Shown one piece after another: positions 3,014 through 26,332 of a stretch of DNA of 36,723 bases (its first letter is position 1; each line of letters starts with the position of its first letter). Origin of the DNA: an uncultured Candidatus Saccharibacteria bacterium. GTDB taxonomy: Bacteria; Patescibacteriota; Minisyncoccia; UBA10092. The notes beneath the pieces were generated by a model. It was not told where the DNA came from. It saw nothing but the letters and a program-made list of their open reading frames with translations, and searched no databases. The DNA is taken from assembly GCA_964553885.1 (NCBI GenBank), contig CAZKLP010000004.1:1-36723 (forward strand), given 5' to 3'. The translations under genes and the position numbers were made by a program.

Positions 3014-3340
3014 CTAAACAGGAAATTTTAATTGTGACTGTGATTCTATTGTTTTATCTAAGCAGATATATTTATAAGGAAAAATCCGTTCCTTGTAAAT
3101 ATATCTACAATAACTACAAATCATCAGTATCAAGAGTTGCAATTTACTTTTATCAAATACTTGTTGATCAGGATGTACATATCCCTGCAACACCGGAATG
3201 AAAACTCCTTTTTCACACGCTCCGCAATGAATGAGGCGCAACATCTTATTTGTTTCCGCTTTTGAAATTAAAAGATCGGTAAGCTGTAAAATATCTTCGG
3301 GAACAAAGTCAGTTTTTATCATAAGATCATTAAGGACCAT
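3014..3340 (-). CDS. Hypothetical Cys-rich protein (two CxxC pairs)
   Basis: ATG preceded by AGAGGA. HCGAC and CSYC pairs suggest a zinc ribbon. No family recognised. Confidence 0.45.
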   Translation of the reverse strand: MVLNDLMIKTDFVPEDILQLTDLLISKAETNKMLRLIHCGACEKGVFIPVLQGYVHPDQQVFDKSKLQLLILMICSYCRYIYKERIFPYKYICLDKTIESQSQLKFPV

Positions 3341-3462: not shown

Positions 3463-3496
3463 TTATACTATAAAAACGATCGTTTTTATAGTATAA
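3463..3496. repeat. 34-bp perfect palindrome centred on CGATCG (site A)
   Basis: ttatactataaaaacga|tcgtttttatagtataa. Its first 23 nt are identical to 4127-4149. Confidence 0.9.
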
Positions 3497-3544
3497 GTAA
3501 AATTAAAATTTACCTTATATTCAACGTGGCAATCGCAACAGCAA

Positions 3545-4096
3545 TCACAAATAGAATTTTTGTTTAAGCCACTCGTCGCCTTCGATTTTTTGAGCTTCAA
3601 TAAAATTTATATAAGGGCCGACTTTAAAAATTTCTTCAATAAATTGAATTTCGCTAAGGCATGGATACGGATAAATAAATACGCTTTTCTGCAATTGATA
3701 AAATCCCAATTCTTTTAACTTCAAACGCAGAGCGTTGCGCGCGATTTTTTCGCCTTCCGGGATATCAAAGATTACAATCCGCCAAATGCCATCCCATTTT
3801 TTTGGTTTTTTGATCTCTAAACTATCAAGATTATATTTTAATAATTTTTCCCTGCCCTTTTCTAAAATAACTATTTTAGAAATTTCTCCATCTTCTTTAA
3901 AATCAATTAATCTGTCTCGTTTCATCGCTTTTATTGATTTTACAAAACTTTGTTTCTTGGTCTTAAACTTTTTAATTAACTTAATCAAGGGCCTAAACAT
4001 TTCGGCAGACCCTGGTAATACCATTACAGTGGTAATTACAAATCCAGCGCCTAGGACTAATAAAATTTGTTTTGTTAGTTCCCCTCTTTTATTCAT
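3545..4096 (-). CDS. PaaX/Cas2-like fold putative DNA-binding protein, paralog 1
   Basis: WDGIWRIVIFDIPEGEKIARNALRLKLKELGFYQLQKSVFIYPYP signature, with an N-terminal hydrophobic segment. TGA stop. Confidence 0.7.
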   Translation of the reverse strand: MNKRGELTKQILLVLGAGFVITTVMVLPGSAEMFRPLIKLIKKFKTKKQSFVKSIKAMKRDRLIDFKEDGEISKIVILEKGREKLLKYNLDSLEIKKPKKWDGIWRIVIFDIPEGEKIARNALRLKLKELGFYQLQKSVFIYPYPCLSEIQFIEEIFKVGPYINFIEAQKIEGDEWLKQKFYL

Positions 4097-4126
4097 ACCT
4101 TAAAATATTTATTTTATAATTCATGA

Positions 4127-4160
4127 TTATACTATAAAAACGATCGTTTAGTTAGTATAA
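4127..4160. repeat. Imperfect CGATCG-centred palindrome (site B), copy of site A
   Basis: ttatactataaaaacgatcgtttagttagtataa, 31 nt upstream of the paralog 1 ATG. It overlaps a minus-strand TATAAT. Confidence 0.9.
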
Positions 4161-11040: not shown

Positions 11041-11078
11041 TGTACCATAACCATTGCTATAGCATAAGTTAGGGTACA
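11041..11078. terminator. 38-nt hairpin after the hydrolase gene, with no T-run
   Basis: tgtaccataac..ttgctatagca..gttagggtaca. Its apex ttgctatagca is identical to the apex of the palindrome at 17037-17070. Confidence 0.35.
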
Positions 11079-16958: not shown

Positions 16959-17124
16959 AAAAAGACCAGATATAACTTTCCTTGCGCACTCGGTCGCCCA
17001 GCGGCGACCTCGCTGTCCGATGAAAACGTTTTATTAGCCTCAATTCCTTGCTATAGCAAGGAATTGAGGCGAAACCATGCTAAAACGCTTTCATAAGCTT
17101 CGGAAAGTTACATCTGGTCTTTTT
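16959..17124. other. 166-nt structured palindromic element (candidate sRNA or MITE)
   Basis: A 23-bp closing stem (22 of 23 paired) joins 16959-16981 to 17102-17124. Inside are the hairpin ggtcgcc-cagc-ggcgacc (16992-17009) and a 34-nt perfect palindrome (17037-17070). No ORF. Confidence 0.6.
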
Positions 17125-24502: not shown

Positions 24503-24531
24503 TTTTTATAACTTTTACAATTTTTATAATT

Positions 24532-24555
24532 TTACCACTTAATTTCCGATCGGTT
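24532..24555. repeat. Left 24-bp inverted repeat (site C), CGATCG-containing
   Basis: ttaccacttaatttccgatcggtt is the exact reverse complement of 25265-25288. It is also part of a local imperfect palindrome. Confidence 0.9.
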
Positions 24556-24656
24556 ATTAAGTTGTTAAAAATTAAAATATACAATTAAAAGAAAAAGTGT
24601 AGTTTAAAAAATTAAAAAATTATTAGAGTACTTGCAATAAAAAATGTTCACGGTAC

Positions 24657-25190
24657 TTACAATAAATGGAATTTATTTTTAAGATCTAAATCAATATCCG
24701 TGTTTTTAACTCGCAAAAATCTGACATACGGCGAGAGATTGAAAATTTCAATTATAAAATCAATTTCATTTTTGCATTCGTAGGGATGAATAAATACGCT
24801 TTTTTGCACAGGATAAAATCCGAGTTCTTTTAATTTTTCAACCAACGCCACCCGTCCCCGTCTTTCATCTTCTGGAATATCAAAAATAACCAAGCGCCAA
24901 ATGCCGTCCCATATTATCGGTCTTTTTATCCGAATTTTGTCTAAATCATACTTTAAAATTCTCTTCTTCCCGCTGTCTGTTAAAATAATATTTACCGTTC
25001 CATCGCTACTTTCTTTGTAATCCACCATCTTTGACCGATACAATTCCCTTATCGCCCGTTTTAAATTTCTTTCATTGATTTTTTTTCACTCCTTGACCAT
25101 GCTTTTAACAATTCTAAAATAATGATCCGGCCTTCTTGTTAAACTCAAAGAAGCTCCTCCTATTAAGAGGAGCATAACTTTTTTAGACAT
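24657..25190 (-). pseudogene. PaaX/Cas2-like paralog 2, interrupted by an in-frame TGA
   Basis: The track ORF 24657..25043 (WDGIWRLVIFDIPEDERRGRVALVEKLKELGFYPVQKSVFIHPYE) continues upstream in frame as MSKKVMLLLIGGASLSLTRRPDHYFRIVKSMVKE-TGA-KKINERNLKRAIRELYRSK. The TGA is the complement of 25086-25088. Confidence 0.7.
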
Positions 25191-25237
25191 TGATCCCATC
25201 CGTTCCATATCTATAATTGTTTCGTATTTATAAAAAT

Positions 25238-25266
25238 AGTATATTTCAAAAATTACCACTTTGCAA
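25238..25266 (-). promoter_or_regulatory. Promoter of paralog 2, overlapped by palindrome site D
   Basis: Minus strand reads TTGCAA (25261-25266), a 17-nt spacer, TATACT (25238-25243). Confidence 0.5.
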
Positions 25267-25479
25267 CCGATCGGAAATTAAGTGGTAAATTACAAATATA
25301 ATAGAATTATTTTTAGTGAAAAGTTTGAAACGTTTTTGTATACGATAGGCATGCGCAAATCTTCTAAGCCATGTTCCTGTCGCATCGGAAGAAAGCGCCC
25401 AAATTAAATCCTGGTGTTGAACAAAAATTAACCGAAGAAGCTCTCGCAACAGCGCATTAGTCTTTTGCAGTTCGGTCAT
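25246..25479 (-). CDS. Doubtful small ORF (77 aa from the ATG at 25479)
   Basis: Only ORF evidence. The 3' end runs through palindrome site D. No recognisable family. Confidence 0.2.
   Translation of the reverse strand: MTELQKTNALLRELLRLIFVQHQDLIWALSSDATGTWLRRFAHAYRIQKRFKLFTKNNSIIFVIYHLISDRLQSGNF
25253..25288. repeat. Right inverted repeat / imperfect palindrome (site D), CGATCG-centred
   Basis: ttaccactttgcaaccgatcggaaattaagtggtaa. Its last 24 nt are the reverse complement of 24532-24555. Confidence 0.9.
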
Positions 25480-25552: not shown

Positions 25553-26332
25553 TCAAATCGTTTTTTGATGTTTCTTTCGCCATTCCTCCCGCCCATTATG
25601 GGCGAGGCTCGACTGGCGAGCTTCTCGCCAGGCGGCTATTTTTTTATGATTCCCGGAAAGAAGAACTTTTGGAACGGCGTATTTTTTATCGCGCTTGCCC
25701 CGCCCTGGCGATGACCATTTGAAAACTTCCGGACGGGTGTAAACCGGAACGCCAACTCCAAATCGCTTTTCTTCAAGCGATTCGTTTTTTCCCAAAACAC
25801 CGGTAATATGACGCGATACCGCGTCAATAACAACCATCGCCGGAAGTTCGCCTCCGGTAAGAACATATGGACCTATGGATATTTCACCAAAATTAAAACC
25901 TAAATTCTGAATAATTTTTTTAATCCTGTCATCAACTCCTTCGTAGTGGCCGGCAATCATTATTATATGATCATATTTTTTTGAGAGTTCTGTGGCCATT
26001 TTTGAATCAAATTGCTTTCCGGCCACTGAAAACAGCACAACCTTAATTCCTGCGGCCGCAGGAATTAAGGTTTGATTAGTTTTTCTTTTTAAATTATTTT
26101 TTCGTTTTAAAATTGAATAGAGCGCTTTTGCAAGCGGCTCGATTTTGAAAACCATCCCCGGACCGCCGCCGAAGGGTTTATCATCAACTTTATTGTGTTT
26201 ATCGGTTGAAAATTTTCTTAAATCAATAATATTTATATTTATCTTCCCGTTTTTTTGGGCGCGCCGAATTATACTCTCATTTAAATAAGATTCAAAAATT
26301 TTTGGGAAAATTGTTATAACGTCAAATTTCAT
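25553..26332 (-). CDS. trmD: tRNA (guanine37-N1)-methyltransferase TrmD
   Basis: MKFDVITIFPKIFESYL, DDKPFGGGPGMV, LTGGELPAMVVIDAV. Has an extra segment between the conserved blocks. Confidence 0.93.
   Translation of the reverse strand: MKFDVITIFPKIFESYLNESIIRRAQKNGKININIIDLRKFSTDKHNKVDDKPFGGGPGMVFKIEPLAKALYSILKRKNNLKRKTNQTLIPAAAGIKVVLFSVAGKQFDSKMATELSKKYDHIIMIAGHYEGVDDRIKKIIQNLGFNFGEISIGPYVLTGGELPAMVVIDAVSRHITGVLGKNESLEEKRFGVGVPVYTRPEVFKWSSPGRGKRDKKYAVPKVLLSGNHKKIAAWREARQSSLAHNGREEWRKKHQKTI
26039..26072. repeat. 34-bp perfect palindrome inside trmD (NotI-site centre)
   Basis: aaccttaattcctgcgg|ccgcaggaattaaggtt, translated as TLIPAAAGIKV in the trmD extra segment. Confidence 0.9.

Follow-up and report, generated by a model that had tools for sequence, protein, structure and literature searches.

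Palindromes flanking a mini-PaaX gene in a Patescibacteria genome as predicted members of a paralog-specific repeat family

A 36,723-nucleotide stretch of DNA from an uncultured Candidatus Saccharibacteria bacterium (assembly GCA_964553885.1, contig CAZKLP010000004.1; the whole stretch is hereafter the window) carries a short PaaX/Cas2-like gene, mini-PaaX paralog 1, bracketed by two copies of a palindrome, sites A and B. On balance, we favor the reading that sites A and B are the class-A home pair of a genome-wide family of ~38-bp palindromes, in which each mini-PaaX paralog would have one private class of double-stranded DNA site. Such a partnership would resemble that of REP repeats with RAYT transposases but would involve a different protein. 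The family also inserts elsewhere, even in-frame in essential genes, so that an as yet undescribed partnership of protein and repeat seems to fit better than a simple switch by which the gene regulates itself. The window is contig C4 of a 500-kb genome (24 contigs, 39.6% GC, ~94% complete; G000 in the comparisons below) whose relatives are Parcubacteria and other Patescibacteria.

Site A (3463..3496, unstranded), the downstream member of the pair, is a perfect 34-bp palindrome, TTATACTATAAAAACGATCGTTTTTATAGTATAA, made up of the arm TTATACTAT, the spacer AAAA, and the core ACGATCGT. Site B (4127..4160, unstranded) is an imperfect class-A palindrome, TTATACTATAAAAACGATCGTTTAGTTAGTATAA, whose first 23 nt are those of site A; its gene-proximal half is perfect, and three changes fall in the distal half. 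Between them lies paralog 1 (3545..4096, minus strand), which encodes 183 aa. The end of site B lies 31 nt upstream of the ATG, and its gene-proximal end overlaps an ATTATA at 4126-4131, i.e., TATAAT on the gene strand, while site A lies 49 nt beyond the stop codon and 123 nt upstream of an open reading frame (ORF) at 3014..3340 on the minus strand. A preliminary description of the window had reported this bracketing, the perfect symmetry of site A, and the 23-nt identity, and we confirmed the coordinates and the sequence. It had also noted four CGATCG hexamers; our recount gave exactly four, at 3477, 4141, 24547, and 25268, where shuffles expect 9.0, and all of them fall in the flanks of paralogs 1 and 2. 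A strain variant in one metagenome (run X3) carries 12 substitutions and 11 gap positions within 4098-4125; the variation does not extend beyond these 28 nt, which separate the ATG from site B, and site B is unchanged.

The palindromes extend through the whole genome and pair with the paralogs one to one. There are 70 CGATCG hexamers in the genome, ~42 of which center long palindromes, and CTATAG and CTCGAG are second and third cores with the same behavior. When a match was required at 13/18 arm positions or more, 118 palindromes were counted, as against 6-17 in shuffles; at 15/18 or better, a shuffled genome yields 2. Our site list, drawn up at a threshold of at least 12/18, holds 71 sites in ~14 arm classes. 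Each of the 11 mini-PaaX paralogs (11/11) is flanked by its own arm class; the core is CGATCG for five paralogs, CTATAG for another five, and CTCGAG for one. Three further classes (F, G, and C') are represented by sites alone, without any gene in the assembly. The paralogs are only 32-46% identical to one another, their arms differ, and no near-identical mini-PaaX copies were found in the genome. Sites of different classes adjoin each other in arrays; at C3:29850-30108, four classes are packed into 260 bp.

Class A comprises sites A and B and two further members, a perfect copy at C9:10155-10186 (C9:10170) and a degraded copy at C20:8354, where a half-site matches with one mismatch at C20:8339. 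The half-site, for which the preliminary description had proposed a genome-wide search, is thus not private to the locus, given the C9 and C20 copies; it marks one class of the 71-site family. No class in the genome has more sites than class B, with 12; its gene is paralog 2 (24657..25211, minus strand), which has unstranded palindromes downstream (24531..24568; arm TTACCACTTAA, core CCGATCGG) and upstream (25252..25289). Paralog 2 contains an in-frame TGA at a conserved Trp (KE*KKINE, where homologs have KEWKKINE), which may be a recent nonsense mutation or else a sequencing or strain variant.

Averaging over 64 sites from 10 classes revealed a bipartite anatomy. Counted from the dyad, positions 1-4 (core) are 97-100% palindromic, positions 5-8 (spacer) 39-56%, and positions 9-17 (arm) 77-100%, with background palindromy beyond position 19. 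Hence, a site is laid out as an arm of 9-10 bp, a spacer of 4 bp, a core of 8 bp, a second spacer, and a second arm, 36-40 bp in total. Symmetric double changes in the spacers are below chance (12 observed versus 20.6 expected). With unpaired spacers, a hairpin form would hold a 4x4 internal loop, and this unpaired, bipartite pattern speaks for a dimer that reads duplex DNA and against a hairpin as the recognized form.

Some classes depart from this average. Classes H and I have an anti-symmetric central motif (TA-CCTATAGG-AT), which fits no model so far. In class H, and partly in class I, no site is palindromic at positions 5-6, next to the core, so that the sites are polar; the central 12-mer of class H is the asymmetric TACCTATAGGAT, which occurs in either orientation (C14:8957, C14:9820, C3:20778, C13:9877, C21:3516, and C12:547). 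The sites at C7:116 and C7:787, which flank the paralog at C7:136-714, are hybrids: their outer halves have class-C arms (TATCCCATTT) and their inner halves another arm (TGTACxAC). This is the layout expected from a crossover between two palindromes at the shared core.

The protein combines a Cas2-like domain with a putative winged helix. Residues 99-174 of paralog 1 match PaaX_M (PF20803; E=4.9e-22, 78 bits against a cut-off of 24), as do all 42 aligned homologs. The Cas2 family PF09827, whose match in paralog 1 overlaps PaaX_M, scores 21.5 bits there, under its cut-off of 23.8, and 24.5 bits in paralog 2. Paralog 1 stops nine residues past PaaX_M and has no match to PaaX_C (PF08223); neither it nor the aligned homologs match PF07848, the PaaX-type N-terminal winged helix. 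The N-terminal part (residues ~1-98) is winged-helix-like, with a weak MarR/SlyA match (E=0.015) and, in a few homologs, weak matches to assorted winged-helix families. AlphaFold2 models of this part show a helix-helix-helix-strand-strand pattern, yet the predicted local distance difference test score (pLDDT) was only ~45-50 with an alignment of 42 sequences and again with one of 85, whereas residues 100-183 exceed 90. The top Foldseek match is the PaaX structure 8A39 (132 columns, template modeling [TM] score only 0.37), followed by many Cas2 structures with a TM score to the target of ~0.6. Residues invariant across 85 homologs include D111, R120, K137, S138, P143, and C146; D111, within FDIP, takes the position of the Cas2 active-site Asp at the end of strand 1. 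Mean pairwise identity is 34% in the N-terminal part versus 51% in the Cas2-like part. One N-terminal segment, ILLVLGAGFVITTVMVLPG (residues 11-29; window 4040-4070), is transmembrane-like, being uncharged with a Kyte-Doolittle value of 2.28. This character (values of 2.2-2.3) is found only in the paralog-1 orthogroup and a few others, while many paralogs are charged there (~0.8-1.4). The segment might serve as a membrane anchor or form helix 1 of the winged-helix domain; we tentatively read it as helix 1 because of the charge in so many paralogs.

PaaX is the phenylacetyl-CoA-responsive repressor of E. coli and Pseudomonas and consists of PF07848, PF20803, and PF08223 (PDB 8A39 and 3L09). It represses its own promoter, and its operator is a 39-bp split inverted repeat, TGATTC-N27-GAATCA (PMC9493321). 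Mini-PaaX shares the Cas2-like central PaaX_M domain with this repressor, has 8A39 as its best structural match, and may share the N-terminal DNA-binding winged helix that PaaX carries. Moreover, the PaaX operator of ~39 bp (PMC9493321) and the mini-PaaX sites of 36-40 bp have a similar outer-arm layout. Mini-PaaX differs, however, in its length (~180 versus ~305 aa), in the absence of the PaaX_C ligand domain and of a PF07848 match, in having no paa genes nearby, and in coming as 4-13 paralogs per 0.5-0.8-Mb genome. Its sites are further set apart by their conserved 8-bp core, by their position on either side of the gene, and by the existence of dispersed and in-frame copies.

Orthologs of paralog 1 are numerous, with 70 proteins at 64-92% identity. 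The order dnaB-NUDIX-[site-gene-site]-cysS-corA is found in three relatives, G010 (75%), L063 (85%), and L065 (77%), and both flanking sites in all three retain the arm TTAnnCTAT and the core ACGATCGT. The spacers have diverged (AAAA, AGAA, TCTG, CACG, TTCA, and others), as has all other intergenic DNA. The gene past site A varies: it is an orphan ORF encoding a CxxC protein here (3014..3340, minus strand; 108 aa), a membrane ORF in L063, and a different ORF in G010, and in L065 no gene follows the downstream site, which lies between convergent genes. The CxxC ORF has no Pfam match and no homolog in the orthologous loci L063, L065, and G010 or elsewhere in the genome, and it may not be a real gene. 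Because the gene after site A is not conserved, site A would belong to the module instead of being an operator of the next gene.

Taken together, the one-to-one pairing, the conservation of arms and core in syntenic orthologs, and the PaaX-like operator length make the palindromes very probably the cognate sites of the encoded winged helix-turn-helix (wHTH)/Cas2-fold protein, in agreement with what the preliminary description had predicted. We suggest that the protein dimerizes via its Cas2-like domain and that the dimer is centered on the dyad and covers the conserved 8-bp core. The two variable N-terminal winged-helix domains would then read the 9-10-bp arms ~13 bp to either side, and the 4-bp spacer would be crossed unread. 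At site B, next to the promoter, binding would probably lead to autorepression, as in PaaX.

Arm similarity tracks protein similarity across 31 gene-site pairs (Mantel p<=0.0005). The correlation is the same for the N-terminal and the Cas2-like domain (r=0.29), and the N-terminal domain is not singled out; the result shows co-divergence and does not locate the residues that read the arms.

The arrangement reaches well beyond this orthogroup. Flanking palindromes occur at 25 of 28 homologous loci in 20 related genomes, with private arms and the cores CGATCG, CTATAG, or CATATG, which answers positively the question, raised in the preliminary description, of whether homologs elsewhere are also flanked by private palindromes. 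A separate sample, scored at a strict threshold, drew 80 loci from many Patescibacteria lineages; 47 of them have at least one palindrome and 20 have both (shuffle control, 3 of 160 flanks). Gene counts are patchy, at 0-13 per genome and 0-7 within one genus. Among the four genomes compared, the palindromes are limited to those that carry the gene family: G000 has 11 mini-PaaX genes and 60 palindromes of these cores in 500 kb and G002 has 9 and 23 in 342 kb, and neither a gene nor such a palindrome is present in the 231 kb of G007 or the 380 kb of G009, which have only GC-rich terminator hairpins.

Many copies lie away from any mini-PaaX gene. The 53 solo sites show no promoter bias: they are distributed over tandem, divergent, and convergent spacers as 23, 7, and 8, compared with 23.2, 7.6, and 7.2 expected from spacer length (p=0.93), and the eight in convergent (3'-3') spacers are located where no promoter is expected. 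At least nine copies are in-frame within genes, namely uvrA, uvrC, folD (two), mnmA, ksgA, ychF, trmD, and a gene for a 360-aa protein, and the class-C copies among them always encode YP(S/T)xRRSSxNGI. The preliminary description had proposed that occurrence at many unrelated loci would mark a generic repeat and refute its operator reading. This holds in part, in that the family is dispersed, lacks promoter bias, and enters housekeeping genes in-frame.

Comparisons with relatives place some of these copies in time. In uvrA, a perfect palindrome lies within a 63-nt (21-aa) insertion seen only in G000; the insertion is missing in three congeners and two further family members, with flanks that are 84-92% identical. 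A perfect class-A copy upstream of gatB is absent in 11 relatives, including both close congeners and G010, which has a class-A gene. Judged from these comparisons, the uvrA and gatB-upstream copies are lineage-specific gains. In folD, two insertions of 11-12 aa are common to G000 and G002 and absent from other families, and the folD copies have 92-94% DNA identity versus 77% for the whole gene. We also noted a promoter-like motif, TTTATTTGAAATTTTGTGTTATTTT, that precedes gatB in most relatives (C9:10190-10250; spacers L068-L078); in G000 the class-A palindrome is inserted between the upstream terminator and this motif.

Between G000 and G002, which could be compared at 21 positions, a palindrome of the same class is found at 8, ~8 have none in G002, and 1 or 2 have another class, so that the two genomes disagree in presence or class at ~10. 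One difference between G000 and G002 is a precise swap, in which class J is replaced by class F between conserved flanks, and half-sites are kept at deletion edges in G002. The cysS/NUDIX slot is occupied by the module here; in G003, G004, and G008 it contains a solo palindrome that belongs to another class. From such comparisons, the solo palindromes behave as a mobile repeat family with turnover, gained, lost, and swapped in intergenic slots and inserted in-frame in genes, and not as a promoter regulon.

The window itself contains two unstranded solo palindromes with CTATAG cores, one of class L at 11042..11077, whose cognate gene is on contig C19, and one of class J at 17036..17071, whose cognate gene is on contig C10. 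The latter centers a larger repeat (window 16959-17124; also C2:20484, C5:26609, and C22:146), the conserved flanks of which read CGCTGTCCG..GTTTTATT before the palindrome and AAACCATGCTAAAACGC after it; the G002 ortholog of the C2 element has a class-F CGATCG palindrome in exactly the same slot. A further palindrome of the window, the 36-bp in-frame copy in trmD at 26038-26073, has the core GCGGCCGC, encodes QTLIPAAAGIKVV, and has arms (CCTTAATTCCTG) that resemble class J. In the cysS coding sequence of G004 (L040:2157-2192), there is an in-frame 17/18 palindrome with a CTCGAG core (TAACACTCTGACATTCTCGAGAATGTCAGAGTGTTG).

By likeness, the closest analogs are PaaX with its operators and REP/RAYT elements. 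REP or REPIN repeats and their RAYT (Y1 HUH) transposases reportedly form joint elements called REPtrons. As there, the mini-PaaX gene is flanked by its own palindromic repeats with one repeat class per gene class, further copies are dispersed in intergenic DNA, several of them in clustered arrays, and repeats and gene co-occur across genomes. Unlike RAYTs, mini-PaaX has a wHTH and a Cas2-like domain and is not an HUH transposase, of which there is none in the genome; each class here has 2-12 copies as opposed to hundreds; copies lie in-frame inside genes; and the anatomy suggests recognition of a duplex, not of a single-strand hairpin with a GTAG head. Rickettsia palindromic elements, said to be 100-150 bp long, are likewise short palindromic repeats found in-frame in conserved housekeeping genes, where they add a 12-21-aa loop, but they have neither a cognate flanked gene nor a class-specific protein partner. 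Cas2 dimers bind the middle of a ~30-bp DNA duplex. The mini-PaaX domain resembles Cas2 in its ferredoxin-like fold (TM score ~0.6 to several Cas2 structures) and in the invariant Asp ending strand 1; it differs from Cas2 in being fused to a DNA-binding domain, with no Cas1 in the genome and no CRISPR array near either gene.

How do other explanations fare against the same evidence? Paralog 1 might be an ordinary autoregulated transcription factor with a small regulon, acting on its own promoter through site B, on the next gene through site A, and on other promoters through the solo copies. The precedent of PaaX, an autorepressor whose operator is a split inverted repeat of 39 bp (PMC9493321), speaks for this, as do the overlap of site B with a -10-like TATAAT, the sparing of site B in the run X3 variant, the arms and core conserved in orthologs, and the fact that solo copies, too, keep arms and core better than spacers. 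Autoregulation through site B is plausible by analogy with PaaX. The proposed control of the downstream CxxC gene, a claim of the preliminary description, was not supported, since that ORF is an orphan and the downstream site in L065 lies between convergent genes. A regulon also sits poorly with solo sites that lack promoter bias (eight of them in 3'-3' spacers), with at least nine in-frame copies in housekeeping genes, and with a gatB site missing in all 11 relatives examined, even in G010 with its orthologous regulator; moreover, classes F, G, and C' have sites without a gene, and the class-B gene has a stop codon. We therefore regard a plain regulon as unlikely. It is far less probable still that the gene travels as a small transposable cassette with sites A and B as its terminal repeats. 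Most family members do have the bracket layout, gene counts are patchy (0-13 per genome), and G000 and G010 carry the module in a slot where G003, G004, and G008 have only a solo palindrome; however, those solo palindromes are of other classes, orthologs at 64-92% identity share a syntenic place, and near-identical gene copies are absent. Of the duplicated cassette suggested in the preliminary description, the idea of a module survives, but duplication does not, as the paralogs are old (32-46% identical) and their arms differ. Least probable of all, we think, is that the palindromes are RNA or DNA hairpins (terminators, processing sites, or cruciforms) independent of the neighboring protein. 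Site A folds at -14.5 kcal/mol (z = -7), the cores have the shape C-NNNN-G, resembling a closed tetraloop, some arm variants within sites are symmetric, and the G003 solo copy lies between convergent genes with A/T-rich flanks. Against this, spacers are non-complementary beyond chance and the real terminators of the genome are GC-rich hairpins; we rejected the terminator reading because site A is not succeeded by a U-tract on the gene strand and the spacers do not pair. Hairpins would also leave unexplained the one-to-one mapping of classes to paralogs and the absence of the palindromes from gene-less genomes.

A different question is whether the protein does more than bind. The wHTH-Cas2-like protein may be an enzyme (a nickase, nuclease, or strand-exchange helper) that works at the dyad or spacers and creates, homogenizes, or moves copies, a possibility that we hold only tentatively. 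Just as tentatively, Patescibacteria could harbor a transposase-free mobile system in which the wHTH targets a Cas2-fold dimer whose active site nicks or exchanges strands at the core or spacers and thereby spreads the palindromes; the bracketed gene would be the home copy of the element, and the invariant Asp, Lys-Ser, Arg, and Cys would be the candidate active site. Several observations keep a protein acting on DNA possible: D111 (at the Cas2 active-site position), R120, K137, S138, and C146 are invariant in 85 sequences; the genome has no Y1 (RAYT-type) transposase (PF01797) and no Cas1, both searched genome-wide with positive control genomes; no gene other than mini-PaaX accompanies the palindromes consistently; the recent insertions show perfect palindromy; the core-adjacent spacers are hypervariable; the flanks of C7:136 are hybrid, as expected from crossover at a shared core; and one class was precisely exchanged for another. 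A repeat search found no CRISPR array in the window, and there is none near either gene. On the other side, we know of no activity for the PaaX_M domain, and the nuclease activity of Cas2 is dispensable in CRISPR adaptation. Furthermore, the modules are stably syntenic, inserted segments exceed the palindrome in length, the hybrid pattern is seen in few modules only, and other integrases or host recombination may be responsible instead. No supported joint for inversion or excision of sites A and B was found in Logan contigs from four groundwater metagenomes, in which contigs break at palindromes.

Several observations weigh against the private-site partnership that we favor. Filled and empty positions differ in length by 55-77 nt, more than the palindrome itself, and the uvrA and gatB insertions, whose A/T-rich flanks are ambiguous, revealed no clean target-site duplication. 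Symmetric arm variants within sites, where only one protein is present, number 24 versus 15.9 expected (p=0.014), and they differ between the two sites of one gene; they may point to a process at the level of the DNA itself, for example copying or the formation of hairpins, for which simple dimer binding does not account. The four arms around a gene obey no single rule: when inverted, direct, and within-site symmetric relations were tried as one rule for the four arms of a module, all three occurred, with equal means of ~8/10. Like the class H and I motif, these three patterns (the length of the inserted segments, the symmetric variants, and the relation of the four arms) agree with none of the models proposed so far. 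In addition, copies per class are few (2-12) in comparison with REPs, site lists vary with the palindromy threshold, the co-occurrence of genes and palindromes is based on four genomes, and the N-terminal domain is poorly modeled (pLDDT ~45-50) with only weak winged-helix matches.

A search of the full-text literature returned no description of short PaaX/Cas2-like proteins with flanking palindromes in bacteria of the Candidate Phyla Radiation (CPR). New at this locus are the complete one-to-one map of paralogs and palindrome classes, the position-wise site anatomy, the syntenic ortholog series, the dated uvrA and gatB-upstream insertions, the class swap, and the comparison with gene-less genomes. 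For the annotation of metagenome-assembled genomes, it matters that the palindromes break short-read assemblies, with contigs ending at them, and that they add in-frame loops to essential proteins.

CPR bacteria (Patescibacteria) have tiny genomes, few recognizable regulators, and no genetic system, and how they control and reshape their DNA is little understood. Here, a single family provides 11 paralogs in 0.5 Mb with private 38-bp site classes, and hence directly testable protein-DNA pairs: eleven natural specificity variants with predicted sites in one genome. If the proteins only bind, they would probably be the dominant DNA-binding family of these organisms and a model of how two-part specificity diversifies, with a fixed core and variable arms. 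If instead they act on DNA, they would constitute a new repeat-mobilizing system on the Cas2 fold, with implications for how the Cas2 of CRISPR adaptation originated.

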